Notes: generated from the letters alone by a model not told the origin. DNA of 64,000 bases from an uncultured Gammaproteobacteria bacterium (GCA_964394405.1 CAYMVY010000001.1:233219-297218); one strand, 5' to 3'. Positions 1,868 to 46,224 are shown, numbered from the stretch's first letter. Numbers and translations are program-made.

Positions 1868-3640
1868 ATGAGAAGTCATCGCATACAAGCAGGATTTACC
1901 CTGATAGAATCGCTAATAGCGCTCGGTATTTTTGCGATTTTTGTAGTGGGTATTTACGGGAGCATACAGTTGAGTTTTTCATTGGTCTATCATTCACGTG
2001 TGCGAATTATTGGAACAGCTCTTCTGAATGAACAAATCGAGATTATACGCAACGCGCCATTTGATAGTGTGGGGATAATCAATGGGAGTCCTTCAGGAAT
2101 TTTTGAATATGTGACTACGACCAATAGAAATGGGATGATATTTGAAATCACACGAACCATTAGAAATGTGGATGATCCCTATGATGGAACAATCGGGGGA
2201 ACACCGGGGGACACTGCTCCGGCAGATTACAGATTTGTAGAAATTGAAGCAAGGTGTGTCTCCTGCGATCAGACCGAACCACTTGCAATGTACACCTATG
2301 TTGCACCAAAATACCTAGAAGGAAATCTGAATCATGGCGCACTATTTATACAGGTGATAGATGCATACGGCAATCCTGTTCCTGATGCACGAGTACACGT
2401 AGTTGCAACAAGCACCAACCCGACATATGATTTTTTTGACACTACTGACAATAGTGGTTATTTGAGAGTTTATGATCTTGCTACAGGAACAACGAAGTTT
2501 GTGATAGAGGCGACAAAAGAAGGGTATACTACAGCGACGACCTATTCCCCAAGTTCTACTAACCCAAATCCAACAACTCCGCATGTTACGATTATACAAC
2601 AGGCGGTAAGCAATCTTACATTGTCAATCGATCATATATCCACACTTGCAATTGAAACAAAAAATGCGCAATGCACAGCTGTACCCTCAGTTCCGGTGAC
2701 AATCAAAGGGACACGCCTCATTGGTCTGAATCCGAGTGTGTTTCTGGTGAATGAAGGTCGTATAACGAACAGTCTGGGTACCACAGGAGAAATGCAATTA
2801 CCCTGGGATAGCTATGGAATTACGGTTACAGGATATGATTTGATTGGTACGATTCCTGATGTGCTGATGCCCATATTGCCAGGATCGTCTCAGACGAGCC
2901 AATTGATTGTAGGGACAGATACCACTCGATCTCTCGTGGTTACTGTAGTAAATCAGGGTGCACCCATCGCAAGTGCTACAGTCACGGTCACTGGACCGAA
3001 TGGGTTTTCATCAGTCAAGACAACCGGAGTCGGGAGTATTTCTCAAACGGATTGGTCATCAGGACCAAATCATGAAACTTTTGGAGCAGGACAGGGGTAT
3101 AGTGAAGCGACTGGGGTCGATCCATACACTTCACCTGGAGACCTCACACTCGCACTCAATGGAAATTCATATGTATCAAGTGGGGTACTCGAATCCTCGA
3201 CCATTGATACAGGAGAAAACGCTCGGTATGTCGTCTGGTCGTGGAATCCGATGTCTGAGACACCATCAACAACGGTGCGTTTTCAAATTGCTACTAGTCC
3301 ATCGAGTACAGGACAAATATGGAATTTTGTAGGTCCGGATGGGACTGCAAACACCTATTTCAGTACTACTAGTACCAGTATTTCCAGTGTGCATGATGAT
3401 GAGCCGTATATGAGGTATCGGGTGTATCTAAGTACTATTGATCCGTCAGTCACACCAATAGTATCTGATCTGTCATTTGTATATACCAATGCGTGCACTC
3501 CGCCAGGACAAGTGTATATGGGGGGCTTAAGTCAAGGAGAATATACTATCCAAGTCCAAGCAGAAGGATTCCAGGCATATGAGCAAACAGTTGATGTCAC
3601 TGCTGACCACTTTATCACGACCGAGCTAACTGCCCTATGA
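1868..3640 (+). CDS. large type IV prepilin-like protein (prepilin-type N-terminal cleavage/methylation domain; Thr/Ser-rich)
   Basis: N-terminus MRSHRIQAGFTLIESLIALGIFAIFVVGIYG matches the G|FTLIE prepilin leader with Glu at +5 and a hydrophobic helix. 590 aa, Thr/Ser/Gly-rich body. Confidence 0.7.
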   Translation: MRSHRIQAGFTLIESLIALGIFAIFVVGIYGSIQLSFSLVYHSRVRIIGTALLNEQIEIIRNAPFDSVGIINGSPSGIFEYVTTTNRNGMIFEITRTIRNVDDPYDGTIGGTPGDTAPADYRFVEIEARCVSCDQTEPLAMYTYVAPKYLEGNLNHGALFIQVIDAYGNPVPDARVHVVATSTNPTYDFFDTTDNSGYLRVYDLATGTTKFVIEATKEGYTTATTYSPSSTNPNPTTPHVTIIQQAVSNLTLSIDHISTLAIETKNAQCTAVPSVPVTIKGTRLIGLNPSVFLVNEGRITNSLGTTGEMQLPWDSYGITVTGYDLIGTIPDVLMPILPGSSQTSQLIVGTDTTRSLVVTVVNQGAPIASATVTVTGPNGFSSVKTTGVGSISQTDWSSGPNHETFGAGQGYSEATGVDPYTSPGDLTLALNGNSYVSSGVLESSTIDTGENARYVVWSWNPMSETPSTTVRFQIATSPSSTGQIWNFVGPDGTANTYFSTTSTSISSVHDDEPYMRYRVYLSTIDPSVTPIVSDLSFVYTNACTPPGQVYMGGLSQGEYTIQVQAEGFQAYEQTVDVTADHFITTELTAL

Positions 3641-4260
3641 AACAAAAGATTAAAAAATTCATACGGTATCGCGGCACTAGCCTGGTTGAGGTTACGGTGG
3701 TAGTGGGAATAACAGCGATTGTTACTTTGGGGGCAGCATCTTTTATCATTTTAAGTTTTCGCAATCAACGTGTAATTGATGATCAGCTGTTTGGGCAGAA
3801 AGAAGCGCGACGTATTGTTTCTGAAATTGTAAATACCGTGCGCACTGCAGAGCAATCAAGTATCGGTTCTTATCCAATTGCTGAGGCAACTACTTCTTCG
3901 CTTACGGTGTATACGAATATAGACAAAGATTCACTGAGAGAGCGTGTGCGTTATTGGCTTCTTGGGACTGAGTTAAAAAAAGGGGTTCTCAAGCCAAGCG
4001 GAAACCCGCTTTCGTACACAGGTACTGAGCAAGTAACAACGATTGCCCACAATGTTCAAAATAACGCTCAGGGTACAGCCACATTTGAATATTTTGATGA
4101 ATCATATGCTGGCTCAGGAGTAGGAATGAGCTCACCTGTCGCTATTCCTTCTATACGTATGGTGAAGATTGTAATTGAAATTGAAAGAGATGCATCTGTA
4201 AGTCCAGTACCACTAAAAGTAGAATCACTTACACAAATTAGGAATCTCAAAGAGAATTAG
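3637..4260 (+). CDS. type IV pseudopilin / minor pilin
   Basis: N-terminus RYRG|TSLVEVTVVVGITAIVTLGA is a prepilin-like leader with Glu at +5. Overlaps the upstream gene stop, so likely co-operonic. Confidence 0.65.
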   Translation: MKQKIKKFIRYRGTSLVEVTVVVGITAIVTLGAASFIILSFRNQRVIDDQLFGQKEARRIVSEIVNTVRTAEQSSIGSYPIAEATTSSLTVYTNIDKDSLRERVRYWLLGTELKKGVLKPSGNPLSYTGTEQVTTIAHNVQNNAQGTATFEYFDESYAGSGVGMSSPVAIPSIRMVKIVIEIERDASVSPVPLKVESLTQIRNLKEN

Positions 4261-4365
4261 TGATATTGATTTAGATAAGTAACCACAGTACGTTCAGTGA
4301 TTTGATGAAGTAGGGTTATCAAAAGGCTTAATTAGAAAGTTATTCCTCTCTGACGCAGTCAGCAT

Positions 4366-5730
4366 ATGAGTCACACAAAGCACCATAAGCAACCATATCG
4401 CGGAACAACACTCCTTATTGTGATGATCTTTGGAACCATCGCATTTGTCATAATGGTGCTTGGGGTTTTGGGGTACGCACTATTTGAACACAAAATTTCG
4501 ATGGAAATGTATCGAAGAGATGCTGCATTTCATATCGGAGAGGCAGGGATTAATTATTATCGCTGGCACCTAGCGCATAATACAACTGATTTTACTGATG
4601 GCACTGGATTGCCTGGGCCCTATACACATACAATGAGAGATAAGTTCAATACATCTGTGGGTAGCTACTCAATTACCATTTCCTCCCCACTGCCCAATTC
4701 TTCAGTCATTGAGGTTTCTTCAACAGGAACGATAATAACCTCACCGAACGCAAAGCGCGCCCTCAAGGTACGGCTCGGTTTCCCCTCATTCACAGACAGT
4801 GCATTTCTCATGAATGTAGATATGAGCTTCAGCTCAACAACACAGGTTCATGGCGAGGTATTATCGAATGGGGGCATCAAATTCGATGGCACGACTGACT
4901 CATGGGTGAGAAGTGCTCGTACTACCTACACGTATCAGGGGCAGTCCAAACCAGGGATATGGGGGAATGGTGGTCCGCAGTATTACTGGCAATTTCCAGT
5001 ACCTGCAGCTGATTTTGGATCAGTCACTGCTGATCTTGCTGCCCTAAAAACCATTTCACAACAGAGTGGCGGCAAATATTTGAGCTCTTCAGGAAGAGAG
5101 GGGTATCAGATCATTTTTAATAATACACAATATACAGTATATCGAGTGCGAACTCGCGACTGTTATGCAGGGAGCGGGGTGGATTATTGTTATGATATTG
5201 GTAGCAAGACCCTCATTGGGACATATACACTTCCCACCAATGGGGTAATGTTTATCGAAGACAATGCATGGCTCGAAGGAACTGTGGATGGTAGGGTTAC
5301 GATTGGGGTCGGAACATTTCCTGTACAAGGAACATATAAACAAGTGTATATTTCCAATAATCTGCTACAAAAACAAAAATCAAGTGATGATGTGATTGGA
5401 ATTATAGCGCAGGGCAGTATTATTATTCCCTATGAAGCCCCCAGTACTATGGAGGTAAATGCAGCAGCACTCTCACAATATGCACAAATCTATACACCAT
5501 ACTATAGTCCAAGTCAAAATCCAGGAGCGCTGAAAAATTCTCTTACCTTCTTTGGTTCTCAGATTTCGTATACAGGAGGCGGATGGAAATATATCAATGG
5601 ACAGGGGCAAGTAACTTCTGGATATTTATACACCAATCATGTATATGATGGAAATCTGAAGTACTACCCACCTCCAGGATTTCCGACAGGCTCTACGTAT
5701 GAATTGATTAGCTGGGAAGAGGTGCAATAA
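4366..5730 (+). CDS. pilus-associated protein with prepilin-like N-terminal helix (PilX-like, no Glu5)
   Basis: N-terminus PYRGTTLLIVMIFGTIAFVIMVLGVLGYA is a hydrophobic helix after RG. 454 aa. Third gene of the pilin-like trio. Confidence 0.4.
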   Translation: MSHTKHHKQPYRGTTLLIVMIFGTIAFVIMVLGVLGYALFEHKISMEMYRRDAAFHIGEAGINYYRWHLAHNTTDFTDGTGLPGPYTHTMRDKFNTSVGSYSITISSPLPNSSVIEVSSTGTIITSPNAKRALKVRLGFPSFTDSAFLMNVDMSFSSTTQVHGEVLSNGGIKFDGTTDSWVRSARTTYTYQGQSKPGIWGNGGPQYYWQFPVPAADFGSVTADLAALKTISQQSGGKYLSSSGREGYQIIFNNTQYTVYRVRTRDCYAGSGVDYCYDIGSKTLIGTYTLPTNGVMFIEDNAWLEGTVDGRVTIGVGTFPVQGTYKQVYISNNLLQKQKSSDDVIGIIAQGSIIIPYEAPSTMEVNAAALSQYAQIYTPYYSPSQNPGALKNSLTFFGSQISYTGGGWKYINGQGQVTSGYLYTNHVYDGNLKYYPPPGFPTGSTYELISWEEVQ

Positions 5731-5759: not shown

Positions 5760-5788
5760 TTACCTTTTACTTTACAATGTGTTATAAT
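5760..5788 (+). promoter_or_regulatory. candidate sigma70 promoter with extended -10 (TGtTATAAT) upstream of galU
   Basis: TATAAT at 5783-5788 preceded by TG at 5780-5781. Weak -35 TTACCT at 17-nt spacing. Confidence 0.35.
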
Positions 5789-5836
5789 ACGTTCAACTTG
5801 TTTTTAAACACAGATTTTTCGTTAGAACATACGCGT

Positions 5837-6676
5837 ATGGTTACTGTAAAAAAAGGAGTAATTACGGTTGCAGGACTTGGCACTCGCTTTCTACCCGCGA
5901 CCAAGGCAATGCCAAAAGAAATGCTTCCTGTTCTTGATAAACCAGTAGTGCAGTACATTGTGGAAGAAATGGTAATGAGCGGAATAACTGAAATAATTTT
6001 TGTGACTAGTTCGCTCAAACGCGCGATAGAAGATCATTTTGATCGCGACCGCGATTTTGAAGCGTATCTCGAACGCCAGGGAAAATTGGATCGGATACAA
6101 TCTCTGATTGATTTGAGCAAGAAAGTCAGATTTTTTTATACCAGACAGGCAGAACCCCTAGGAAATGGGCATGCACTTCTATGCGCAAAAGAATTTATTG
6201 GAGACGAGGCATTTGCTTTCTCTGACGGGGATAGCATTATTGATAGTAAAGTGCCAGTCATACGCCAGCTAATTCAGATTTTTAATAAAAAAAGTTCATC
6301 TATAATCGGGGTACAAAAGATTGAAGACAAAGAGGAAATGTCAAAAAAATACGGAAATGTGTACGGTAAATCACTAGGACAGGGGATTTATCGCGTGAAG
6401 GAATTTCGAGAAAAGCCACCCATTGCAGAAGTTTCACCTTTGGGTCTTATTATTGGGGGTATGCGCTACATCTTTACCAAAGATATTTGGCCCATGCTCG
6501 AAGCACAGCGCTCTGGCAGAGACGGGGAAATTTGGTTATCAGACGCAGCAAACGCACTTGCAAAGAAAAAAAAGTTTTTTGCCTATGAATACGAAGGAGA
6601 ATATTTTGATACGGGAAATCCACTTGCACTACTAAAAACAACAATCCATTTTGCACAAAAAGAAGGGTTGTTGTAA
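5837..6676 (+). CDS. galU: UTP--glucose-1-phosphate uridylyltransferase
   Basis: N-terminus VITVAGLGTRFLPATKAMPKEMLPV is the GalU/nucleotidyltransferase signature. Start placed at the internal Met (MVTVKKG). Confidence 0.8.
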   Translation: MVTVKKGVITVAGLGTRFLPATKAMPKEMLPVLDKPVVQYIVEEMVMSGITEIIFVTSSLKRAIEDHFDRDRDFEAYLERQGKLDRIQSLIDLSKKVRFFYTRQAEPLGNGHALLCAKEFIGDEAFAFSDGDSIIDSKVPVIRQLIQIFNKKSSSIIGVQKIEDKEEMSKKYGNVYGKSLGQGIYRVKEFREKPPIAEVSPLGLIIGGMRYIFTKDIWPMLEAQRSGRDGEIWLSDAANALAKKKKFFAYEYEGEYFDTGNPLALLKTTIHFAQKEGLL

Positions 6677-6692: not shown

Positions 6693-7664
6693 TTGCTGAT
6701 AACTATGGAACAAACCTTAAAAGAAATAAGTAAATTAATGGTAGCTTTGTCCACTCTTTTTTTTCTTTTTTTTTCACACACATATACGGTTGTTGCAGCA
6801 ACTCCCAAATATCTCTACTGTGACTGTAGAGTGGAGGTGGGCTTTGCTCTTGAAGAGAATCAGGAAGCGACATTGGATGATAATCTTTTCATCAGGTACG
6901 CCCCGCTCATTGATAATGGTGTAACCAATGACACAATTTTTACTTTTCCAGGTGAGTACTCAAATTCAATTAGTGGGAGAGGGTTTATAAATGGAGATAA
7001 GTTCGGGTATTCTTACGCCAAGAATGTGTTTGAAAAAATTAAAGCAGGTGGGGCGATATTATATGATGAAGCTGGGAATTATTTTAAAAATCAACAGTCA
7101 ACTAACAATAATTTCAATCTCTATCCATTCAAACTTAATCCTCAATTTAAACAGGCAGCATTCGTTATAGAAAATGAGACAGAGGCAATGATTGATTTTA
7201 ATACTCAAGATAAAAATGCTTGTAGCGTAGATATTCCTTCGATAGAAGGGTATCCGAGTGGTATTTATAGTAGAGTCAAAGGCGATACATATATTGGATT
7301 TAAAATGGAGTGTGCCGATCGATATGAGTATGATATAAATGAAGTACCAGACCCGCATGAAAAGGAAAATACTGGTCAATCTCCCAGTAGCACCTCACTT
7401 AAAAAATTCGCAGACCAGCTCAACAAACTAGAGGCAAAAACTCTCCCTGCTTTGATCGGGGTTATCATAAAAGGATTGATGGGTATCATTGGGACTGTGG
7501 CACTAGTCATGATGCTCTACGGAGGAATTCTATGGATGACTGCCCGAGGAAATTCTGAGACTACTACCAAGGCGCGCGATACGATTCTGTGGGCAGGACT
7601 CGGGATCGTCGTGATCTTTGCGAGCTATGCGCTGGTAGACTTTATATTTGAGATATTTAGGTAA
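6693..7664 (+). CDS. secreted protein with C-terminal TrbC/VirB2-like pilin module (array member P0)
   Basis: N-terminal hydrophobic signal. C-terminus LYGGILWMTARGNSETTTKARDTILWAGLGIVVIFASYAL matches the array consensus. Confidence 0.55.
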   Translation: MLITMEQTLKEISKLMVALSTLFFLFFSHTYTVVAATPKYLYCDCRVEVGFALEENQEATLDDNLFIRYAPLIDNGVTNDTIFTFPGEYSNSISGRGFINGDKFGYSYAKNVFEKIKAGGAILYDEAGNYFKNQQSTNNNFNLYPFKLNPQFKQAAFVIENETEAMIDFNTQDKNACSVDIPSIEGYPSGIYSRVKGDTYIGFKMECADRYEYDINEVPDPHEKENTGQSPSSTSLKKFADQLNKLEAKTLPALIGVIIKGLMGIIGTVALVMMLYGGILWMTARGNSETTTKARDTILWAGLGIVVIFASYALVDFIFEIFR

Positions 7665-7734
7665 CATATGACTACAGACAGCGGTCAATATTTTTCTCAG
7701 TAGTCTGTCAACAGTAGTCCGTAGTCCAAAAATT

Positions 7735-9111
7735 ATGAAAAAACGAATACTCATCTCTCTAGCAATGGCCATGGTGCTAACCATTTCTGGTTTTGGCTGC
7801 AAAGGATTGAGTGTGCAAGAGAGATCGGCCGTGAAATCCACCACACTCAATTATTGGACAATATATAATAATGTTGAAGAATTGAAAAAATATGCTGCAG
7901 AGTACAAACAAATTCGTCCGCAGGTCACCATAAACATTAGACAAGTGCGGTATGAGGAATTTGATCAATTATTTACCAATGCGTTGGCTGACGATGTAGG
8001 TCCTGATATTGTGTCTATGCATGTACGCTGGCTACACAAAAATCAGGGAAGACTGTCACCTGCTCCACCATCAGTACAGGTACCTCGATTGATTCAGAAG
8101 AATAAATATACCAAGGAACAAGAGGTGGTAATAGATACTATTGCACTCCCACGTGAGCGAGATATTCGAAATGAATATGTAAAAACAGTACATAAAGATG
8201 TTGTAATTGACGGGTCTATCTACGGGCTACCACTCGCGGTCGACTCTCTCGCTCTATTCTACAATCAGACTCTACTAGATCGTGCGGGCATTCCTGAGCC
8301 ACCAGCGACCTGGGAAGAATTCGTTGATGCAGTGCAACAGACGACGAGGTTCAACGCAACACTCGATATTATCCAATCCGGAGTTGCGCTCGGTACTGCA
8401 AATAATATAGATAATTTTTTTGACATTGTTTCATTATTCATGCTCCAGAGTGGGGTCACGCTGACCGAAGAAAATAATGTATTATTTGGTGTAGGAGTAG
8501 ATCGTGCTCCAGACCGCACACATCCTACCATCCGCGCGCTCGATTTCTATACAGGGTTTGCAAGAGCTACTGCAGATAGATATAGCTGGAATGAGCGCAT
8601 GCAGAATGCATTTGATGAATTTGTGCGTGGTAAAAGCGCATTTTTCTTGGGGTTTGCCTATGACTACCCTCGCATCAAGGAGAGAGCGCCTCAGCTCGAT
8701 ATGCGAATTGCAACAATTCCCCAGCTCAATCCGAGTTCTCCCTCAAATGTCGCGAATTATTGGGTAGAGTCAGTGGTAAAGAAATCCAAATATCAAAACG
8801 AAGCATGGGATTTTGTACGGTTTATCACATCAAAAGAAAAGGTAAAAGAATATACTGCAGCAACTTTCAGACCAAGCCCCTATCGAGAGCAGATAACTGA
8901 GCAACAAGAGGATGAACAACTAGGTCCATTTGCAACCCAGGCATTATTTGCAGAAAACTGGTATCGAGGGAAAGAAGGGGATATTGCAGTCGAAACAATG
9001 AAAGATATGGTAACTGAATTTTTGAGACCAGGAAACGATGAGCAGGAGACACTCAAGAAAGATAAAACAACTATTATCAATAGTGCTGCAAAAATTCAGC
9101 AGACATACTGA
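7735..9111 (+). CDS. extracellular solute-binding protein (ABC-type, family 1-like) lipoprotein
   Basis: Signal plus lipobox-like ISGFGC. Size and composition of a sugar-type SBP. No permease genes adjacent. Confidence 0.4.
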   Translation: MKKRILISLAMAMVLTISGFGCKGLSVQERSAVKSTTLNYWTIYNNVEELKKYAAEYKQIRPQVTINIRQVRYEEFDQLFTNALADDVGPDIVSMHVRWLHKNQGRLSPAPPSVQVPRLIQKNKYTKEQEVVIDTIALPRERDIRNEYVKTVHKDVVIDGSIYGLPLAVDSLALFYNQTLLDRAGIPEPPATWEEFVDAVQQTTRFNATLDIIQSGVALGTANNIDNFFDIVSLFMLQSGVTLTEENNVLFGVGVDRAPDRTHPTIRALDFYTGFARATADRYSWNERMQNAFDEFVRGKSAFFLGFAYDYPRIKERAPQLDMRIATIPQLNPSSPSNVANYWVESVVKKSKYQNEAWDFVRFITSKEKVKEYTAATFRPSPYREQITEQQEDEQLGPFATQALFAENWYRGKEGDIAVETMKDMVTEFLRPGNDEQETLKKDKTTIINSAAKIQQTY

Positions 9112-9119
9112 GCATTGCT

Positions 9120-10295
9120 ATGAAAAAAAGGAATACATTTCTTTTGTCCACGCTATACCTAGGTAGCGTCCTTTTGGGAGTGGTGGTCTTTGGGGTGCAA
9201 AGTATTCACGCGAATCATCTGGTAGTTAATCTGGGGGGCTTCAGATGTCCGATTGCACCAAAACAAGAGGAAGACATGGCAATCTTTAAAATAATCATGC
9301 CCGGAGGTAGATTATTTCCTGCCGAGGCAAGCGAAGATGAGCATTTTGATGGAACAAAAGATCAGCCCAAGGACAGCGAAGGGAAATTTTTCTGTGTACC
9401 TGTCCCCAAAGGAACCAAAGAAATTAATTGGATGCAATTACTTCAAGGGAGGGACGCACAGGGGAAACGAGTGATGGTAGACGATTGGAGTGATGAAGAC
9501 GTAAGAGGGCAAAACAGGGACAAGTGTGCTTCTCCCAACAACTGGGATAGCTTTGAATCAGATCATCGACCTGATACAGCATTCTATAAACTCGAAGAAA
9601 GTAGAAATGTTCGCTGTGACGGCGGAGAATACTACGCCCGTATACGATATTATTTCAATGATTTGGATACAGCAAAAGATGAGTTTTTTATCTATTTCAT
9701 GAAGATAGCTGATCCGGGTGATGTGCCACTGAATAATCAGGGATGTCTCAATAAACATGGTGAGAATAAAGAAGCATGTTCTGCTGATGCAGAATGTTTT
9801 TGGTGGCCAGCCATACCTCGGTGTATGGCAAAAGCAGATCGTACCAATCAGTGCTCGAAATTGGATGTGGAGACATGCAAATTAGCGCAACATTGCAAGG
9901 TGAAGAATAATGCATGCACTGATGTACAAATCGATATGGGAGCTGCGGTAGATGAATATATTGCAGCACGGTATCAGAAGCCAGACGGCTACACTGGACC
10001 ACTACCCGATTGCGCGTTTACCGGGTCATGTCGCAGTATAGAGGATTTACTCGAGCTCGGTGTCAAGGTTGCTGATTGGCTTTTTTCAATCATTGCAGGA
10101 CTGGCATTTGTATTTTTTGTCTACGGCGGATTGACTATGGTATTGTCACTTGGGAATGCAGAGAAAGTGGGACAAGGAAAACAAATTTTAGTTGCAGCGA
10201 CACTCGGACTCATTATCACATTCTCAGCATATATACTCGTAGGATTTGTAGTCAAGGCAATTGGGATTAATGCTGGACTCACACCATTTAATTGA
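9120..10295 (+). CDS. Cys-rich secreted protein with C-terminal pilin-like module (P1)
   Basis: Signal peptide, more than 16 Cys in the ectodomain. C-terminus VYGGLTMVLSLGNAEKVGQGKQILVAATLGLIITFSAYIL. Confidence 0.55.
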   Translation: MKKRNTFLLSTLYLGSVLLGVVVFGVQSIHANHLVVNLGGFRCPIAPKQEEDMAIFKIIMPGGRLFPAEASEDEHFDGTKDQPKDSEGKFFCVPVPKGTKEINWMQLLQGRDAQGKRVMVDDWSDEDVRGQNRDKCASPNNWDSFESDHRPDTAFYKLEESRNVRCDGGEYYARIRYYFNDLDTAKDEFFIYFMKIADPGDVPLNNQGCLNKHGENKEACSADAECFWWPAIPRCMAKADRTNQCSKLDVETCKLAQHCKVKNNACTDVQIDMGAAVDEYIAARYQKPDGYTGPLPDCAFTGSCRSIEDLLELGVKVADWLFSIIAGLAFVFFVYGGLTMVLSLGNAEKVGQGKQILVAATLGLIITFSAYILVGFVVKAIGINAGLTPFN

Positions 10296-10304
10296 TAAAA
10301 AAAT

Positions 10305-10937
10305 ATGCGTAGATTGGTAAAATATATACCCCTATTAGTAGCGATTGTCTTTAGTTTTTTTGCAGGACCGAACGTTTTTGCTCAGACTGGATTTAGTTGT
10401 CAGAGTGATCAGGAATGTTATGAGGCAGGATATACGTGCGATGCGACAACACACACTTGTACCCAGACATTATCACAACCGGCATTGGACCAAACCGCAA
10501 ATACAGTATGTTATGTAAAATCGTCAAAAACATGCTCACAATCCGAAGCTACTTGCAATGAGCCGAATCAGAAATTTCCTGACATGCCTCAATGTGAAGT
10601 CTATAAACAGGCACAAGACACATACGAGGCTACGGCAAATGGGACTACCAACTGTCGTAATGGCGAAGACTGTGTAAGTCTCGTGAACCCGCTCTCGACC
10701 ACTGATATTCGGAAAATAGTCGGGAGTACCATTCAGGTGCTTATTGGAATTATTGGGTCAATTACCTTTGTAATTTTCCTCTATGGAGGGGTGCTCTGGC
10801 TCACCTCAGCGGGGAATTCTGAAAAAATACAAAAAGGTTTACAGGCAATGCTCTGGGCTGGGATAGGAATTATTGTGGTTTTTAGTAGCTATGCTATACT
10901 TACGTTGATTTTGGACGCATTGCAGGCGAGTCCTTGA
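10305..10937 (+). CDS. Cys-rich pilin-like protein (P2)
   Basis: Signal MRRLVKYIPLLVAIVFSFFAGPNVFAQ, Cys-rich middle. C-terminus LYGGVLWLTSAGNSEKIQKGLQAMLWAGIGIIVVFSSYAIL. Confidence 0.6.
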   Translation: MRRLVKYIPLLVAIVFSFFAGPNVFAQTGFSCQSDQECYEAGYTCDATTHTCTQTLSQPALDQTANTVCYVKSSKTCSQSEATCNEPNQKFPDMPQCEVYKQAQDTYEATANGTTNCRNGEDCVSLVNPLSTTDIRKIVGSTIQVLIGIIGSITFVIFLYGGVLWLTSAGNSEKIQKGLQAMLWAGIGIIVVFSSYAILTLILDALQASP

Positions 10938-10997
10938 GTAACTAATTAATGAATGTTATGAAAAAAACATATCAAAAATTGAAGGGAGGTGAGGAGT

Positions 10998-11417
10998 GTG
11001 AGTAACATCAAAGCAAAATTATTAAAGCATCGAAATATCCTTTTGGGAATCGCGGCTTTAGTGAGCGTTTTTGCGTTATCTCCCGCACATGTAGCGTTTA
11101 CCCAAGCAGACGTTGATTTCGGTACTGATGTGGTAAAAGAGAATATTAATATCAGTACTACAGATGACGATGCTCGAGTAGTAGTCGTACGACTTATTAA
11201 TCTCGCGCTAACGTTTCTTGGATTAATCGCTGTAGTATTGATCCTCTGGGGAGGCTTCAAATGGATGACAGCTGGAGGAAATGACGAAAATGTAGAAGCA
11301 GCAAAAAAGATTATCATTGCAGCAGTAATCGGTCTTGCGATCATTATTTCTGCATACGCAATCGCAAACTTCTTTATCAATTCAATCCAGACTGCAGTTG
11401 GAGACGAGCCTATCTAG
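10998..11417 (+). CDS. TrbC/VirB2-like pilin paralog (P3)
   Basis: GTG start 6-8 nt after AGGGAGGTGA Shine-Dalgarno. Signal, then RVVVVRLINLALTFLGLIAVVLILWGGFKWMTAGGNDENVEAAKKIIIAAVIGLAIIISAYAIANFF. Confidence 0.65.
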   Translation: MSNIKAKLLKHRNILLGIAALVSVFALSPAHVAFTQADVDFGTDVVKENINISTTDDDARVVVVRLINLALTFLGLIAVVLILWGGFKWMTAGGNDENVEAAKKIIIAAVIGLAIIISAYAIANFFINSIQTAVGDEPI

Positions 11418-11510
11418 TTGCACGTTCCTTTGGCACCATTATTTGGATGGTGTCAGAGTTTTCTCGGCATTATATATGTGTCGAGAAAGCTTTGACCTCT
11501 TAGATTCTAT

Positions 11511-11924
11511 ATGAGTATAAAAAAAGTTTTTGCTACATTATTTACCGTAATACTCTTTGTGTTGTTAGTCGGTTTCCAGTCTGCCTATGGACAGGGCTGT
11601 TCTGATGAGTCTGATATTCTGGGGCTCGACTGCGCTGATGCATCGGGTCTGAGTAGCGAGGATCCACGGGTACTCACGATCAGGATCGTGAATTTTGCCC
11701 TGAGCCTTCTTGGTATTATCGCAGTATTGATCATACTCTATGCAGGATTCACCTGGATGACAGCTGGGGGGAATGATGAGAAAATAGGCACTGCAAAAAA
11801 GACCTTGTTCGCAGCAGTCGCAGGACTGATTATTATTCTGACAGCATATTCAATCATGAGTTTTGTACTTCGATCACTGTGTACCGCGACTGGGTCATGT
11901 GGGACACAGTACGGTATTCTTTAA
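11511..11924 (+). CDS. pilin paralog (P4)
   Basis: Signal, then LYAGFTWMTAGGNDEKIGTAKKTLFAAVAGLIIILTAYSIMSF. Confidence 0.65.
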   Translation: MSIKKVFATLFTVILFVLLVGFQSAYGQGCSDESDILGLDCADASGLSSEDPRVLTIRIVNFALSLLGIIAVLIILYAGFTWMTAGGNDEKIGTAKKTLFAAVAGLIIILTAYSIMSFVLRSLCTATGSCGTQYGIL

Positions 11925-11938
11925 TTAATCCGGGTATT

Positions 11939-12697
11939 ATGAAAAAGTTTCTGTTCATTGTGGGGATTGCAATCGCATTTTCTATCTTTGCACTTGGCAC
12001 CGCAACATTTGCGCAAAATTTTGGTCTTGATGAGACAGCAGGGTCAGCAGGTCTCAAAGGATATGGGAACAGTGTGCCGACCATTGCAGGAAATATTATT
12101 GGAACCCTGCTTTCGATGATCTCGGTTCTCTTTTTTGTATTGGTTCTATATGGGGGAATTGTCTGGATGACGGCTCGGGGCAATTCTGAACTTACCACCA
12201 AAGCTATGGATACGATTATTGCAGCCGTAATTGGTATTATCATTATCATGGGAGCATACGCGCTTACCAACTTTGTATTCAAACTCGGTGGGACAAATAC
12301 AGGGGGAGGCAATGGTGGCGGAGGAAATACCGACAGTCCAACTCTCACCTGGTGCTTAACACCTGAAAATAACTGTATCCAAGGTGGGGGAAGTGCTTGT
12401 CCGGGAACATTGTATGCAACCGAAGCCATTTGTAATGCTGCAAAAGGAAGTTCGGCAGTATGTACAGCACGTGGGGAAACAATTTGTGGCAATTTTTTGA
12501 CCAGTGCCGAGTGTACGCAGTACAATGATAGCGCTCCATTTATGGGAGGAAACTATGGATGTCGATGGAATACTATCGGACCAAATGCACCTAATTGTGT
12601 TGTGTCACAGCAACAGATAGATCAATGTAAGGCTTTGTCTCCAGTACAATGTCAAAATGCAGGTTATGAAATGAGATGTCAATTAGGGGCAGAATGA
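11939..12697 (+). CDS. pilin paralog with extra C-terminal Gly/Cys-rich domain (P5)
   Basis: Start at MKKFLFIV. Pilin module LYGGIVWMTARGNSELTTKAMDTIIAAVIGIIIIMGAYAL is followed by GGGNGGGGN and a roughly 120-aa segment with 16 Cys. Confidence 0.6.
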   Translation: MKKFLFIVGIAIAFSIFALGTATFAQNFGLDETAGSAGLKGYGNSVPTIAGNIIGTLLSMISVLFFVLVLYGGIVWMTARGNSELTTKAMDTIIAAVIGIIIIMGAYALTNFVFKLGGTNTGGGNGGGGNTDSPTLTWCLTPENNCIQGGGSACPGTLYATEAICNAAKGSSAVCTARGETICGNFLTSAECTQYNDSAPFMGGNYGCRWNTIGPNAPNCVVSQQQIDQCKALSPVQCQNAGYEMRCQLGAE

Positions 12698-12736
12698 TAC
12701 AAAGTTTAAAATAATGAATAATAAAGTAAGGCACAC

Positions 12737-13129
12737 ATGCGCACTAAATCAAAAAATAAACTTATTTTTTTGCACGTCACCCTTGTTTCAATAGGATTGT
12801 TCGTAAACAAAGCAACAGTTCATGCAAAAAAAACTATTGATGATGCAGGGTCTGCTCTTGATTCAGTAGTAAATCCAACAGGACTACCCAAAGGTGAAGT
12901 GGCAACCTACGTCGGAAGCGTAGCACAGTGGATATTTGGCGCATTAGGACTCACATTTTTTGTACTAGCGACCTATGCCGGGATCACCTGGTTCATCGCT
13001 CGTGGAGAGGAAGAAAAAATTACCAAAGCAAAACAAACCCTGATAGCTGCAGTCATCGGTCTCATCATTGCAATAAGCGCGTATGCGATTTCAGTGTTTA
13101 TTACCAATACCTCAGGTTTTGGGGGATAA
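12737..13129 (+). CDS. pilin paralog (P6)
   Basis: Signal, then YAGITWFIARGEEEKITKAKQTLIAAVIGLIIAISAYAISVF. Confidence 0.65.
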   Translation: MRTKSKNKLIFLHVTLVSIGLFVNKATVHAKKTIDDAGSALDSVVNPTGLPKGEVATYVGSVAQWIFGALGLTFFVLATYAGITWFIARGEEEKITKAKQTLIAAVIGLIIAISAYAISVFITNTSGFGG

Positions 13130-13145
13130 TAACGAGCAAATACAT

Positions 13146-13535
13146 ATGAAAATTGTACAGGGAATAAAAAAACAACTACTGTGTGCATATCTTTTGGTGA
13201 TTAGTCTCAGTCTATTGCCGGGAGCAGTGCTTGGTCAGGGGAATTTGGGGGATGCAGGGGATAATCTAGCAAATGTACAGAAAGGTATTGGTGGAAATGT
13301 TCCAACAGATGTATCAGTAGTGGTTGGAAATATTATCAAAACCGTACTGAGTCTCGTGGGAATCATATTCCTCATTCTTACGGTCTATGCGGGCTATCTC
13401 TGGATGACTGCGCGAGGAGAAGATGAGCAGGTGAGCAAGGCAAAAGAAATTATCAAGTCATCGATCGCAGGCTTATTTGTGGTGGTAAGTTCATACGCGA
13501 TTACCGTGTTTATCACTTCTCGTTTTAGTAACTAA
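13146..13535 (+). CDS. pilin paralog (P7)
   Basis: Start at MKIVQGIKK, signal, then VYAGYLWMTARGEDEQVSKAKEIIKSSIAGLFVVVSSYAITVF. Confidence 0.65.
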   Translation: MKIVQGIKKQLLCAYLLVISLSLLPGAVLGQGNLGDAGDNLANVQKGIGGNVPTDVSVVVGNIIKTVLSLVGIIFLILTVYAGYLWMTARGEDEQVSKAKEIIKSSIAGLFVVVSSYAITVFITSRFSN

Positions 13536-13541
13536 TTTTTT

Positions 13542-13955
13542 ATGAATTCTGGATCACTCATGAGAAAAGTAGGGGTAATGCTCGGGGTAGCCACACTGGG
13601 GTTGCTTGTAACCACTGCACACGCCCAAAATCTTGGAATCGATGCAGTACACAAAGCAGGCACAGAAGCCGGATTTGAGCGCGCGACAGAAACCAGTTTT
13701 TCAGAAAATGTAGGCCGAGCGATTACGATTCTTTTCTCAATATTGGGTGTACTCTTCACTATTCTCATTGTCTATGCAGGCTATCTCTGGATGACTGCGC
13801 GAGGAAATGATGAGTTTGTGACTAAGGCAAAAAACATACTCTCTACGTCAATTATTGGTCTCATCATCTTACTCATGGCCTATAGCATTACCCGCTTTGT
13901 AGTGCCTCGACTGCTTCAGGGTTCGGTGAATGTCCCTGTTGAAGAACAGCAATAG
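13542..13955 (+). CDS. pilin paralog (P8)
   Basis: VYAGYLWMTARGNDEFVTKAKNILSTSIIGLIILLMAYSITRF. Confidence 0.65.
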   Translation: MNSGSLMRKVGVMLGVATLGLLVTTAHAQNLGIDAVHKAGTEAGFERATETSFSENVGRAITILFSILGVLFTILIVYAGYLWMTARGNDEFVTKAKNILSTSIIGLIILLMAYSITRFVVPRLLQGSVNVPVEEQQ

Positions 13956-13958
13956 TTA

Positions 13959-14384
13959 ATGACCTATATGAACAAGTTACGCATCTTTCTTGTCGCCATA
14001 TTCGCCACCTGCGCTGTTGTGACGGGCGTTTGTCTACTATATGCACGTAGTGTAGAGGCTGCCACCACTTCGGTGCCAGATGTTCTCGGACAACTCAATG
14101 CAGGATCAAAGGCGGCAGGATTTGGGACCGAAGCTGTCGACCCTCGAATTGCTGTTGCGAATGGTGTTAAGCTTTTTCTTTCATTACTTGGGATTATTTT
14201 TGTTTGTCTGGTGGTGTATGCAGGATTTCTCATATTCACTGCTGCGGGGAATGATGAACGGGTGACACAGGCAAAAGGAATCATCATAACTTCAGTCATA
14301 GGACTGGTAATTATTTTCTCTGCATATAGTATCACGAGCTTTGTTACACGCCGGATTCTGGCAGAAACAGTAGGGAGTTATTAA
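13959..14384 (+). CDS. pilin paralog (P9)
   Basis: DPRIAVANGVKLFLSLLGIIFVCLVVYAGFLIFTAAGNDERVTQAKGIIITSVIGLVIIFSAYSITSF. Confidence 0.65.
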   Translation: MTYMNKLRIFLVAIFATCAVVTGVCLLYARSVEAATTSVPDVLGQLNAGSKAAGFGTEAVDPRIAVANGVKLFLSLLGIIFVCLVVYAGFLIFTAAGNDERVTQAKGIIITSVIGLVIIFSAYSITSFVTRRILAETVGSY

Positions 14385-14391
14385 TCAATAT

Positions 14392-14892
14392 ATGCTACAA
14401 AAAATACAATTGATACTTGTTCTCTGCTTTTCTTTACTCCTTCCAATCGTAGTACATACGCAGACTATTCCACCAGGACAATACCAGGGGTCGGACATGG
14501 AAAAACAATTAAGTGCTTTTGGTGGTAAGAGCGGGGCGCAATTGGGAGAACCTACAGATCCTCGAATTATTGTCGCGCGATTGATTAAAACTGTCCTGGG
14601 AGTGATTGGAATTATCGCCGTGGTTCTCGCCCTTTATGCAGGGTTCCTCATGATGACCTCGAGTGGGAATGAAGAAAAAATAGCCGAAGGGAAGAAAATA
14701 CTCATGTATTGCGCTGTTGGAGTTGCAATCATTTTGGGGGCATATAGCATTACCTACTTCATCTATTATGGCATCTATAGCAGCTGGCAAAATCCTATGG
14801 AAATAGGAAATCAGGATACTATATATATGCAACCGAATGACTACGACCTGTATAATCCTGATCCACTAGAGCAGAACACCACGATCCAGTGA
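14392..14892 (+). CDS. pilin paralog (P10)
   Basis: DPRIIVARLIKTVLGVIGIIAVVLALYAGFLMMTSSGNEEKIAEGKKILMYCAVGVAIILGAYSITYF. Confidence 0.65.
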   Translation: MLQKIQLILVLCFSLLLPIVVHTQTIPPGQYQGSDMEKQLSAFGGKSGAQLGEPTDPRIIVARLIKTVLGVIGIIAVVLALYAGFLMMTSSGNEEKIAEGKKILMYCAVGVAIILGAYSITYFIYYGIYSSWQNPMEIGNQDTIYMQPNDYDLYNPDPLEQNTTIQ

Positions 14893-14902: not shown

Positions 14903-16018
14903 TTATTGAGAAGAAATAAAATTCAAAATTTCAGTACTAGACTGCGCAAAGGCGCGGTCTTTTTTATGGTAATTACCTGAGAGATAGAATTCGAGCAAGG
15001 GGAGAATTTCTGCCGCTGTTTTGGCATGAGATCCGAGATGGTTTTTTTCTAAAAATTCAATATTATATTCCTCCTGTCCGGGTATAGGATTAATGGCAAT
15101 CATAGGAACACGAGACACCATACATTCAGTGGTGGTGAGACCTCCTGGTTTACTGATGACGACTGTAGCAATCCGCATAAGATCAGAGATTTCATCAGTC
15201 CACCCAAGGGGTGTATATGCGATATGTGGAGGGGGTTTAAGTGCCTTTAGACGTTGATATAGTTTTTTATTGTGACCAGATACTGCAAAAATTGCGAGTG
15301 GTTTTTTGAATGAAGAAAAAAGTTCGGTGACTATTTCTGAAATTTCTATCATACCAGATCCTCCTGAAAGAATGAGGACGCGAGGTATATGTGGAGCGAG
15401 CTTATACCGCGATTCAATACTCGCTACATCCTTTTTTTCAAAGAATTGCGGGTCGATAGGTATACCAAAGGTGTGGACCATGGTTGGTTTAATACCAAAA
15501 TGATTCACGAGTTCATGCTTCATGTCTTTCGTACTTACAATATATGAATCGATTCCTTTAACCAGTAAGACCGGGTGGACTCCATAATCAGTGAGTATTT
15601 CAGTAATTGGGATATGTTTTTTTCGTTTCTTCATGGAGTGCAGGAGAATTTCAGAAGGAAGAAAATGTGTGGAAATGATGTGATCAGGCTCAAATGAATA
15701 TACCTTATTGAGAAATTCAAATGAATTAAGCATTTTGAGATAATCTGTCAATGATCGATAAGCTTTGATAAACGTCTGGTTATCGCTCAAATAGAAGAGG
15801 GATGCCCAAACTTTGGGCAAATGTTCTACGAGAAATCCATAGCCACTCACGGTAGCCTTTTTGAGCAGGGGGGTAATATAATCAGCAATATCAATATGGA
15901 GACATTCCAAGTTGGGAAAATCAAGTCGAGCAGCTTGGGTAAGAGCTCTTGCTGCCTGGACATGTCCTGATCCTGTAGCTAGTGAGACAATTAAAATTTT
16001 CTTTGTTTTTTGGGCCAT
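14903..16018 (-). CDS. glycosyltransferase family 28, MGDG-synthase/UgtP-like diacylglycerol glycosyltransferase
   Basis: N-terminus ILIVSLATGSGHVQAARAL and C-terminal ISKPGGLTTTECMVSRVPMIAINPIPGQEEYNIEFL match the UgtP/MGDG synthase family. Confidence 0.75.
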   Translation of the reverse strand: MAQKTKKILIVSLATGSGHVQAARALTQAARLDFPNLECLHIDIADYITPLLKKATVSGYGFLVEHLPKVWASLFYLSDNQTFIKAYRSLTDYLKMLNSFEFLNKVYSFEPDHIISTHFLPSEILLHSMKKRKKHIPITEILTDYGVHPVLLVKGIDSYIVSTKDMKHELVNHFGIKPTMVHTFGIPIDPQFFEKKDVASIESRYKLAPHIPRVLILSGGSGMIEISEIVTELFSSFKKPLAIFAVSGHNKKLYQRLKALKPPPHIAYTPLGWTDEISDLMRIATVVISKPGGLTTTECMVSRVPMIAINPIPGQEEYNIEFLEKNHLGSHAKTAAEILPLLEFYLSGNYHKKDRAFAQSSTEILNFISSQ

Positions 16019-16152
16019 AGGAGAATAACATGAATAGTATACCCAAATTTTATAAACAATAAAACGCCTGTATGGCGTTATCTATATTGAGAAAGATCCC
16101 CTTCAGGGTAGCTAACCTGCTCGACATGCCAATTGGAGAGGAAGAAATATAC

Positions 16153-16227
16153 TGGGGTGGCTAACGGGGATCGAACCCGTGATAAAGGTACCACAAACCT
16201 CTGTGTTACCACTACACCATAGCCACC
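16153..16227 (-). tRNA. tRNA-His (anticodon GTG), with encoded G-1 and 3' CCA
   Basis: Hand-folded cloverleaf: acceptor GTGGCTA/TAGCCAC, D stem GTGT/ACAC, anticodon stem GAGGT/ACCTT with loop TTGTGGT, T stem ACGGG/CCCGT with loop TTCGATC. Extra 5' G opposite C73. Confidence 0.85.
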
Positions 16228-16304
16228 CCACTATATTCCTTAAGTTGTGCAAAGTACGCGTGTATTGGTTGCTGAAATGGATCCCTGTCCAAAGCGGGCC
16301 TGCC

Positions 16305-16353
16305 TCTGGCGGAGAACCCGTGATAAAAGTACCGCAAACCACTACACCAATAT
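16305..16353 (-). pseudogene. partial degenerate copy of tRNA-His (internal D-arm to T-arm segment)
   Basis: gaacccgtgataaaagtaccgcaaacc..actacacca matches tRNA-His positions 16173-16219. About 36/38 aligned nt identical, with a 9-nt deletion. Confidence 0.5.
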
Positions 16354-16436
16354 CCTCACCTAAACTGACCTTGAGTCAAATGTGAAGACGAGTATAGGAC
16401 AAAATTAGGCTTTTGTCAATGACAAGTATAACACAA

Positions 16437-16462
16437 CCCCACCCTTCGCGAAGGGTGGGGTT
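16437..16462. terminator. perfect 12-bp palindromic hairpin CCCCACCCTTCG/CGAAGGGTGGGG downstream of the SPFH gene
   Basis: Perfect inverted repeat read directly, with A/T-rich flanks. Lies downstream of the minus-strand gene ending at 16489. Confidence 0.55.
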
Positions 16463-16488
16463 GGATAATAAACAGAGAAAATCAATTT

Positions 16489-17220
16489 TTAGTTCTTTTT
16501 CTCAAACGATCGAAGAACTTCGAGGGGCACTGCAAAAATAATAGTATTTGATTGATCAGAGCTGACGTCGTTGATCGTGCTTAGTGTGCGGAGATGGAGT
16601 GCTCCAGGTGCATCAGAGAGCATGCGAGCTGCTTTTGCGATATTTTCAGCAGCAGCGATTTCTCCCTCTGCTTTGATAATTACAGACCGTTTTTCACGTT
16701 CAGCTTCGGCTTGTTTTGCGATGACACGCTGCATATCATCAGGAAGAGTAATGTCTTTCAATTCCACAGTCTCCACTTTGATTCCCCACACATCAGTTGC
16801 GACATCAATGATTTCTCGAATTTTTTTTGCAGCCTCCTCACGTCGTGCGAGTAATTCATCAAGCTCGAGTTGTCCCACAACATTTCGCATAGTAGTTTGT
16901 GCAAGTTGGGAAACTGCAAACCAGAAATTTTCTACTTCGAGTACTGCTTTGGCAGCATCAGCAACACGGTAATAGATTACTGCATTAATTTTTGCTGACA
17001 CATTATCCTTGGTGATTGCTTCTTGGTAGGGTACATCGACTGCTTTGGTACGGATATCCACTTTTTGCATACTCTGGATAATAGGAAATACAAGTCTCCA
17101 TCCAGGTTGTACAATCTTTACGTATTTACCGAGTTGAAATTTGACACCCCGCTGATACTGATTTACCTGACGAACACTGATCAGTATGATAAATAAAATA
17201 ACCGGTATAACTCCCCACAT
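16489..17220 (-). CDS. SPFH/Band-7 (stomatin/prohibitin-like) membrane protein
   Basis: N-terminal TM, then QYQRGVKFQLGKY...VDIRTKAVDVP...AVIYYRV and a coiled-coil C-terminus. Start placed at the internal Met MWGVIPV; 17313 is an alternative. Confidence 0.7.
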   Translation of the reverse strand: MWGVIPVILFIILISVRQVNQYQRGVKFQLGKYVKIVQPGWRLVFPIIQSMQKVDIRTKAVDVPYQEAITKDNVSAKINAVIYYRVADAAKAVLEVENFWFAVSQLAQTTMRNVVGQLELDELLARREEAAKKIREIIDVATDVWGIKVETVELKDITLPDDMQRVIAKQAEAEREKRSVIIKAEGEIAAAENIAKAARMLSDAPGALHLRTLSTINDVSSDQSNTIIFAVPLEVLRSFEKKN

Positions 17221-17385
17221 AAGATATGTGTTTAAGAATAAACGGGAAACTATAGATAGTATTGCGTAAAGTATGTCTAAATGCAAGGGTAGCTCTAATA
17301 CAACACAGACCACCCGTCATAAACATTGTATATCTACAAAATTTATGACGTCGAGGTGGCCTGTGTTTGCTCCCAAGACGTCCCA

Positions 17386-21703: not shown

Positions 21704-21804
21704 ACGGGGTTGTGTGAAGGATGAGGTGATGCCGCTATATTTTTGAAATATAGTGTATTCTGTTAGTGCGGTATGAGTTATGGATTAATTCAATGAGTGT
21801 GTAT

Positions 21805-22719: not shown

Positions 22720-22831
22720 ATATTACATTACCGCTCTAAAAGGGATGAACAAGTCAGTCTATCCTAGCATTTTTTTGCAAAAAATCAACTGGTATCGTAT
22801 AGTTGAGTAAAATCAGCTTAATCGCTAATCT

Positions 22832-23500: not shown

Positions 23501-23624
23501 AACTCAAAACTAAAAACTCAAAAGTTAAAACAATAACTTAAATCTCAAAATTTATTTTGTGTCTGAGAGATTTTAGTTCTTTAGTTACAGCTTTGAGTTT
23601 TGAATTTTACGTTTTGAGTTTACC
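23501..23624. repeat. intergenic AAAACTCAAA-type imperfect palindromic repeat element (copy A)
   Basis: Left arm of AACTCAAAAC/AAAAACTCAAAAG units, right arm of CTTTGAGTTTT/CGTTTTGAGTTT units. Confidence 0.6.
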
Positions 23625-23645
23625 TCAATTTTGTCGTATACTTAG

Positions 23646-24356: not shown

Positions 24357-24387
24357 ATAAAACCCTGTACTAGAAAGGTACAGGGTT

Positions 24388-25191: not shown

Positions 25192-25201
25192 ATAGGTATG
25201 T

Positions 25202-45144: not shown

Positions 45145-45219
45145 ATTAAGCATATTTATTCCGTGTACAGAGTATCTTATGGTATACTATTACCACTACT
45201 ATCATCTAACCGTATTTGT

Positions 45220-46221: not shown

Positions 46222-46224
46222 CGT

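Follow-up and report, generated by a model that had tools for sequence, protein, structure and literature searches.

A large part of bacterial diversity belongs to the Patescibacteria, which live attached to other microbes; to our knowledge, how they contact their hosts and feed on them is largely unknown. The systems closest to the locus described here are arrays of small pilin-like genes in this phylum. In Saccharibacteria (TM7x), and also across the candidate phyla radiation (CPR), four to six small proteins with Sec signals are arrayed beside VirB4 and VirB6 (McLean 2020, PMC7427843), and in the single genetically tractable species its type IV secretion system (T4SS) genes and predicted pilins are essential, as reported for the predicted pilin series in the T4SS cluster of Southlakia epibionticum ML1 (Wang 2023, PMC10633639). 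A survey with the Pfam families PF18895 and PF04956 catalogued 441 arrays of 2-11 pilin genes in 383 Patescibacteria assemblies, with a mean paralog identity of 25% (maximum 54%) and with a pilin gene near virB4 in 1135 of 1948 assemblies (Quinonero-Coronel 2025, PMC12102498); a 2025 review repeats the published array findings (PMC12857230). Here we describe an array of eleven such genes, P0 to P10, in a stretch of 64,000 nucleotides from an uncultured bacterium (GCA_964394405.1, CAYMVY010000001.1:233219-297218; the whole stretch is called the window). We find that the eleven proteins are supported by sequence comparison as anciently diverged VirB2/TrbC-type pilins, and that each is maintained in its position across related genomes. 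Because arrays are already catalogued in Patescibacteria, the kind of system is known and the locus is one more example of it.

The locus conforms to the array definition of PMC12102498, in which two or more pilin genes are in tandem or have one non-pilin gene between them; the order is P0, a gene for an extracellular solute-binding protein (SBP), then P1-P10. It resembles the published arrays in the PF18895 family, the tandem genes with one intervening non-pilin gene, the phylum, and the low identity of the paralogs (mean 33% and maximum 48% over the hairpin), and its eleven genes place it at the top of the published size range. It differs from them in four respects. First, it lies outside any virB4 cluster, unlike the arrays of Saccharibacteria. 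Second, it belongs to a GalU-pilin-SBP-pilins-MGDG-synthase cluster (MGDG, monogalactosyldiacylglycerol) that is unmentioned in PMC12102498, which likewise makes no mention of a solute-binding protein, galU or fused pilins. Third, it comes from class ABY1, whereas arrays were reported to be most abundant in Microgenomatia and Saccharimonadia. Fourth, the strict orthology of its eleven genes speaks against rapid turnover. The strict one-to-one orthology, the conserved cluster, the expression signals of P3 and the gene fusions, all set out below, were not found in the published array descriptions consulted.

The eleven open reading frames (ORFs) lie on the + strand between 6705 and 14892 and carry both a signal peptide and a hairpin, so that the eleven same-strand secreted paralogs of the preliminary description are confirmed, although the contiguous run is of ten genes (P1-P10, 9120-14892) and not of nine beginning at 10305. 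Gene starts were set by signal-peptide logic together with independent gene predictions for a public contig of identical sequence, and signal peptides were judged from hydropathy and inspection of cleavage sites. By these means, every protein starts with a basic N-terminus and a hydrophobic stretch that leads to an AxA-like cleavage site, with Gln as the next residue in 6 of the 11. Two more hydrophobic helices follow, both long, with a short, conserved and charged loop between them (G-N-x-E ... K-A-K). No gap is needed to align the modules over 82 columns; their mean pairwise identity is 33% (range 18-48%), and there are five invariant positions: two Gly and a Glu around the loop, and a Gly and a Tyr in helix 2. 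Two details of the preliminary description apply in part: the module is C-terminal in most of the proteins but not in P5 and P10, where it is followed by tails of 136 and 39 residues, and the DPR(I/V) motif assigned to every module is present in only about 4 of the 11. The module identity of 33.8% compares to 11.1 ± 0.4% in 1000 shuffles (z = 52) that permute residues only within short segments and thus keep the hydrophobic profile, and in the 35 mostly non-hydrophobic columns the identity is 36%, compared to 10% in the shuffles (maximum 12.7%); the check for conservation above composition that had been set beforehand was therefore passed. A hidden Markov model (HMM) of the module, run over all six frames of the window, returns exactly the eleven ORFs and nothing else below E = 0.3.

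All eleven proteins score above the gathering threshold of PF18895 (T4SS_pilin), at 27.8-39.1 bits compared to 26.6, and a precomputed annotation of the identical Logan contig agrees on this family. PF04956 (TrbC/VirB2) gives sub-threshold matches to nine, the best being P4 at 25.8 bits and the eight others 11.6-20, with a cut-off of 27.9; thus, the comparison to pilin models that was proposed in the preliminary description succeeded for one family and fell short for the other. We then compared the family directly with six annotated VirB2/TrbC proteins, each encoded between lytic-transglycosylase/VirB1-type and VirB3 genes on plasmids with a T-type mating-pair formation system (MPF_T). In hhalign, with queries A4 and A1, the whole hairpin aligns in register over 60-63 columns (probability 78-80%, E 1.4e-5 to 1.9e-5). 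The real score is 32.6, while reversed-alignment controls score 9-10 and column-shuffled controls (60 global and 60 local) score 10-11 ± 2.5 with a maximum of 23.1, such that 0 of 120 reach the real score. Since the real score lies beyond both the reversed and the shuffled controls, we consider the resemblance to VirB2 to be homology-grade and not due to composition. The earlier assignment of the module as VirB2/TrbC-like is upheld by this result together with PF18895.

The window family shares with the VirB2/TrbC proteins of Gram-negative MPF_T systems, such as Agrobacterium VirB2, a signal peptide, two hydrophobic helices and a short loop, and in the alignment the conserved aromatic-G-G/A...W-M motif that ends helix 1 falls on G-x-x-W-M-F-G-R of VirB2. 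However, the window family has a loop with 7 more residues, marked by G-N-x-E...K-A-K, and comes from a monoderm host; its genes do not adjoin virB1, virB3 or virB4, several members have large extra domains, and there is no evidence for cyclisation. A second relative is the VirB2-like protein of Mycoplasma integrative conjugative elements (ICEs), Mbov_0395/MMCAP2_0565 (NF045849), likewise from a wall-less or monoderm setting; the matches are partial but extend over most of the 80-position model, with scores of 20.5-33.2 bits among ten proteins, below the 40-bit cut-off (no match for P1; P9 not scanned). The Mycoplasma gene differs in being a single gene within its element. The archaeal conjugation-type (Ced/Ted-associated) pilins 8dfu (Aeropyrum pernix) and 8dft (Pyrobaculum calidifontis) are 12-14% identical with no match at the level of sequence, and structural matches to them are not clearly separated from generic helical hairpins. 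An identity of P0-P10 as pilins of the type IV pilus (T4P) was rejected, as N_methyl (PF07963) is found in none of them and the N-termini are type I signal peptides.

An N-out/C-out hairpin with the loop inside is established for VirB2/TraA-type propilins. The same membrane topology, with the charged loop inside, is predicted for the window family, and the cysteines fit this prediction because their numbers are even in the predicted outside segments (P0 4, P1 14, P2 10, P4 2+2, P5 12). These cysteines are N-terminal to the hairpin in P0, P1, P2 and P4 (2) and C-terminal to it in P4 (2) and P5 (12); the only others are single ones in P7, P9 and P10, within hydrophobic parts of a signal peptide or helix. 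AlphaFold2 (AF2) models show hairpins in P8 and P1. In the P1 model (predicted local distance difference test score 83), a confident beta-rich domain has its strands at residues 51-196 and a Cys-rich part occupies residues 200-270, followed by a short helix and the hairpin at 307-380, and an alignment of 29 homologs has invariant cysteines and a conserved juxtamembrane motif, PDGYTGPLPDCAFTGSCR. In the homolog search for P1, the protein itself was not among the matches, the best of which were 49-56% identical. The ectodomains of P0, P1 and P2 and the tail of P5 have no Pfam match, and a Foldseek comparison to the PDB gave nothing significant. For a Cys motif common to P1 and the tail of P5 the support is weak (pairwise E 0.004), and we make no claim for it. 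Searches of PDB sequences with two profiles were set aside, as a short repeated motif produced their only matches, spurious ones to designed 'Pizza' propellers.

The array is evolutionarily stable. In each of seven related genomes with complete loci, whose SBP is only 73-83% identical to that of the window, there are exactly eleven module-bearing ORFs, in the layout of one pilin gene, the SBP gene and ten pilin genes. Each ORF scores best against its positional counterpart in the window; for P1-P10 this score is about twice that of the next paralog, and for P0 the lead is smaller. We found no pseudogenes, gains, losses or gene-conversion tracts across the seven genomes. This order-preserving one-to-one orthology indicates that the paralogs are old and individually maintained, and it argues against rapid turnover. 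Divergence is distributed unevenly within the proteins. Across species the hairpins are 70-88% identical, with a nonsynonymous divergence (dN) of 0.08-0.24, while the large ectodomains and tails are only partly alignable, with a dN of 0.36-0.74 (0.53-0.61 for the ectodomains of P0, P1 and P2). The fraction of the ectodomain that can be aligned to orthologs is 17% for P0, 86% for P1 and 53% for P2. P0 retains a hairpin that is 79% identical despite its hypervariable ectodomain, P2 has an ectodomain that is 51% identical compared to 79% for the hairpin, and P5 has a tail that is 37% identical and 52% alignable, compared to a hairpin that is 88% identical. The lowest dN of any hairpin in the array (0.08, with 87% identity) is that of P3. 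We report dN and alignability and make no claim regarding dN/dS because synonymous divergence (dS) is saturated (1.1-2.5) among the genomes compared.

Relatives outside the array suggest that the paralogs are used together. In a library of 1.84 billion proteins, a profile of the eleven modules matched 75,272 representatives at E ≤ 1e-3, and in the best-scoring of these, 2-17 modules follow one signal peptide in a single polypeptide, separated by linkers of 20-60 residues (for example, 555 aa with 6 modules, 1147 aa with 11 and 1775 aa with 17). Such poly-pilins stem from several independent sources, and one with 7 modules (locus L038, 10001-11821) is found inside a syntenic SBP-led array next to Band_7. 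By the gene-fusion argument, the separate paralogs of this array most likely stand side by side in one assembly and probably co-assemble. In the same L038 locus (11966-14262), 4 of the 5 short pilins that follow the poly-pilin are near-identical copies of 106 aa; some arrays therefore do expand by recent duplication, in contrast to the stable set of eleven described here.

P3 differs from the other ten genes in its putative expression signals. It is the sole gene of the array with a strong Shine-Dalgarno (SD) site, GGAGGTGA, which is kept as GGGGGGTGA, GGGAGGTGA or GGGGGTGA in 8 of 8 orthologs and also in L040, and an SD match of at least 5 bases is found in just 2 of the 25 other + strand genes of the window. 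The spacer between P3 and P4, at 93 nt the longest of the array, holds a short GC hairpin (11435-11451) and then a hairpin of 18-19 bp (about 11452-11496). The minimum free energy (MFE) fold is -34.7 kcal/mol, the two-hairpin shape is the same in 8 related genomes, and RNAalifold on 9 sequences reports 18 pairs, 7 of them with compensatory double changes. The double hairpin has no Rfam family and is unique within the window. A terminator scan marks 11428-11458 as terminator-like; in L040 a terminator-like hairpin comes after the P3-type gene, and in L042 a canonical intrinsic terminator does. The strong conserved ribosome-binding site, unique in the array, and the conserved hairpin or terminator after the gene suggest that P3 is likely the abundant core (major) subunit. 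P3 is also the best match for many pilins of distant arrays. The hairpins may act as a transcript end, an attenuator or an mRNA stabiliser that sets the stoichiometry of the pilins.

The features of the locus are collected in Table 1. Spacing within the array is tight and operon-like (7-93 nt), and no invertible or repeat elements were found in it; a promoter scan was uninformative, with 24 sites compared to 23.8 expected. Two gene starts have alternatives: an upstream ATG of P7 at 13083 would overlap P6, and a longer start of P8 (137 aa) was rejected, having no exact database match, while the 131-aa form is on record. Antisense ORFs of 123-223 aa overlap the pilin genes on the - strand (10946-11380, 11854-12525 and 13964-14335); these are without support and we treat them as by-products of sense-strand coding.

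Table 1. Genes and signals of the eleven-pilin array and its two ends, in window coordinates
Feature	Position	Strand	Evidence
galU-like UTP-glucose-1-phosphate uridylyltransferase, head of the cluster	5777..6676	+	Pfam NTP_transferase, E 4e-25
P0, T4SS_pilin paralog with a 218-aa N-terminal ectodomain (4 Cys)	6705..7664	+	PF18895 36.0 bits
Orphan family-1 extracellular solute-binding protein (SBP) inside the array	7735..9111	+	Pfam SBP_bac_8, SBP_bac_1
P1, T4SS_pilin paralog with a 281-aa ectodomain (beta-rich domain, then 14-Cys region)	9120..10295	+	PF18895 35.7 bits
P2, T4SS_pilin paralog with a 111-aa 10-Cys ectodomain	10305..10937	+	PF18895 36.4 bits
Strong Shine-Dalgarno site of P3, GGAGGTGA	10985..10992	+	conserved in orthologs
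P3, short T4SS_pilin paralog, candidate major subunit	10998..11417	+	PF18895 39.1 bits, top score of the array
Double RNA hairpin in the P3-P4 spacer	11435..11496	+	MFE fold, RNAalifold covariation
P4, short T4SS_pilin paralog, one Cys pair per extracellular end (predicted)	11511..11924	+	PF18895 37.7 bits; PF04956 25.8 bits
P5, T4SS_pilin paralog, hairpin near the N-terminus, 136-aa C-terminal tail (Gly-rich, then 12-Cys)	11939..12697	+	PF18895 27.8 bits
P6, short T4SS_pilin paralog	12737..13129	+	PF18895 37.0 bits
P7, short T4SS_pilin paralog	13146..13535	+	PF18895 36.0 bits
P8, short T4SS_pilin paralog, AF2-modelled	13560..13955	+	PF18895 37.7 bits
P9, short T4SS_pilin paralog	13968..14384	+	PF18895 36.7 bits
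P10, T4SS_pilin paralog with a 39-aa acidic C-terminal tail	14392..14892	+	PF18895 33.3 bits
MGDG-synthase-like (GT28-type) glycosyltransferase, convergent with the array, end of the cluster	14903..16018	-	Pfam MGDG_synth E 9e-28, Glyco_tran_28_C

The neighbours of the array are conserved as well. The cluster GalU - pilin(s) - SBP - pilins - MGDG-synthase-like (- strand) - Band_7 - XerC recurs in all close relatives, and also in L040 and L042, with arrays of up to about 13 genes, while L041 has GalU - SBP - seven pilins. A galU gene immediately precedes the SBP/pilin array in L001-L007, L019, L040, L041 and L042, an MGDG-synthase-like gene is in the equivalent position in L001-L005, L007, L008, L040 and L042, and the linkage of GalU upstream with the glycosyltransferase and SPFH/Band_7 genes downstream (14903-17313) holds across Magasanikbacteria-like genomes; a connection of the pilins to glycolipid or UDP-sugar metabolism is conceivable. 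The SBP has no ABC permease or ATPase that Pfam could find in the 64-kb window. Its orthologs are 32-83% identical, and in every evaluable CPR locus a pilin gene lies downstream, mostly as the next gene but in L021 at a distance of about 0.7 kb. In distant CPR loci the other neighbours differ but the SBP keeps its downstream pilin, most often a P1-like one; the large ORFs beside these distant SBP-pilin loci (L009-L022) are housekeeping genes (SMC, ComM-like Mg-chelatase, GroEL and GyrA).

The SBP also identifies the host, since its orthologs in metagenome-assembled genomes of Candidatus Magasanikbacteria are 73-83% identical. Judged by these relatives, the host is a Candidatus Magasanikbacteria-like Patescibacterium of class ABY1, the GTDB class to which Magasanikbacteria are assigned in Table S1 of PMC12102498. 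Two further points of the preliminary description agree with our results: relatives of this kind fit the episymbiotic bacterium with a small genome that it had suggested, and the flanks are as it named them, with an N_methyl protein (1868-3640), GalU, and an MGDG_synth/GT28 protein. Housekeeping genes in the window include those for S6, SSB, IleRS, GyrA, FtsH and ThrRS. The N_methyl protein, of 590 aa (E 8e-7, with CarboxypepD_reg and PEGA domains), belongs to a group of type IV pilus-related genes at 1868-5730; the two genes beside it encode hydrophobic N-termini and have no family match or a weak N_methyl match (3637-4260). A PilB-type ATPase gene (46225-47964) is found between two ORFs of about 370 aa without a Pfam match (region 45127-49178). 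RimK/ATP-grasp ligase genes (20795-26485) lie a few kb from the array, with similar genes near the arrays of L040, L041 and L042, and a tRNA gene (16156-16226, - strand, Rfam RF00005, 61.9 bits) is located between the glycosyltransferase and Band_7 genes. No relaxase was found by Pfam in the 64-kb window.

We favour, with moderate confidence, the interpretation that the array encodes a heteromeric VirB2-like surface filament or conduit that depends on a T4SS encoded elsewhere. A VirB4-driven T4SS of the monoderm type (MPF-FATA-like) would extract the hairpins from the membrane, and these would be polymerised, probably with lipid, into one heteromeric filament or conduit at the cell surface. 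P3 would be the abundant core subunit and the short P4 and P6-P10 minor subunits, while P0, P1, P2 and P5, with fast-evolving disulfide-rich domains predicted to lie outside, would serve as host-recognition or adhesin subunits. More speculatively, the SBP, GalU and the glycolipid synthase could provide the structure with a partner that binds ligands and with a glycolipid or glycan. The pilus itself, its dependence on a T4SS, and its roles as filament, adhesin and transfer device are inferred, here as in published work.

Several observations weigh against this interpretation. PF04956 has no match to P1 or P9, and all eleven proteins are below its gathering score. Chains of up to 17 hairpins do not fit easily with extraction of subunits one by one. 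The assignment of P3 as major subunit is inferred from signals of translation and RNA structure. VirB4, VirB6, VirB3/PrgI and a coupling protein were all absent from the 64-kb window by Pfam analysis of its ORFs of 130 aa or more (a few small ones aside); the precomputed Pfam gene calls of L038 and L040-L042 include no VirB4-like gene up to 10 kb from the array in both directions; and there was none among the scanned largest ORFs of L009-L022, L001-L008 being compared for synteny only. Finally, we found no report of a T4SS pilus seen or purified from any Patescibacterium. With regard to the ATPase, GCA_001783045.1, the genome of L042, which has the same cluster layout, is listed as VirB4-positive (PMC12102498), such that the ATPase is probably encoded elsewhere in these genomes.

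If the filament is not formed, the strongest competing explanation, which we consider possible but clearly less probable, is that the hairpin is a membrane-resident module for oligomerisation or anchoring, and that the paralogs form a fixed heteromeric complex with the SBP, independent of any T4SS, that presents the variable ectodomains or serves as a channel or a platform for uptake in the cytoplasmic membrane. The missing T4SS machinery, both in the 64 kb and within 10 kb of the array in the related loci examined, would be expected for such a complex, as would the retention of the array beside an orphan SBP and near SPFH/Band_7 (in Magasanikbacteria-like loci and L038). Furthermore, 2-17 hairpins behind one signal peptide resemble polytopic membrane proteins, and the structural match to pilins is unspecific. 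However, a resident anchor is disfavoured by profile homology to genuine VirB2/TrbC beyond the composition controls and by helices that are longer than a bilayer requires, and chaining of N-out/C-out hairpins is geometrically compatible with neighbouring subunits of a filament too. The published record also speaks for a T4SS: the VirB2-like predicted pilins of Saccharibacteria are within the T4SS cluster and are essential (PMC10633639, PMC12857230), and Magasanikbacteria genomes listed in Table S1 are VirB4-positive (PMC12102498).

It is rather unlikely that the paralogs are alternatives, of which one or a few are used at a time to vary the surface for antigenic or host-range purposes, although surface variation has been proposed for the multiple VirB2 copies of Bartonella and Anaplasma and is favoured for Patescibacteria (PMC12102498). 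The strong differences between species in the P0 and P2 ectodomains and the P5 tail are in keeping with this idea, as is a lineage (L038) with four near-identical, recently duplicated pilins, but one-to-one order and conserved hairpins in seven genomes with no pseudogenes, gains, losses or gene conversion are not, and neither are the operon-like spacing and the lack of invertible or repeat elements; moreover, fusions of distinct hairpins imply simultaneous use. That the family is an artefact of hydrophobic composition in secreted two-helix proteins is next to impossible: the hairpins are short and hydrophobic, with many weak Pfam matches to unrelated membrane families (E > 0.001), but the explanation is excluded by the profile-keeping shuffles (z > 50, and 36% compared to 10% in non-hydrophobic columns), by the window HMM search and by the library search with its 75,272 relatives, and the Gly, Glu and Tyr positions are invariant.

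A bolder proposal, which we regard as improbable, extends the filament interpretation to the whole cluster. The GalU-SBP-pilin array-MGDG-synthase cluster would encode a surface organelle, complete in itself, that occurs in ABY1-class and related Patescibacteria and is distinct from the virB4-linked pilin series of Saccharibacteria: a heteromeric VirB2-like tube with a P3 core, paralogs whose domains recognise the host, glycolipid from the flanking enzymes as structural lipid, and an SBP that captures sugars or lipids of the host. If this is true, the organelle would be a nutrient-scavenging conduit and not a pilus for secretion of DNA or effectors, and the poly-pilin fusions, with up to 17 hairpins, would be pre-assembled segments of it.

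The locus thus provides a clean and evolutionarily stable example of an eleven-gene array and does not define a new kind of system. It yields testable hypotheses: that P3 is the core subunit, that P0, P1, P2 and P5 bear fast-evolving domains that face outward, and that the paralogs co-assemble. A further hypothesis is that the array is accompanied by the SBP and by enzymes that make sugars or glycolipids, but not by the T4SS ATPase. These hypotheses bear on how T4SS pili may be built in monoderms and on the host specificity of episymbionts.

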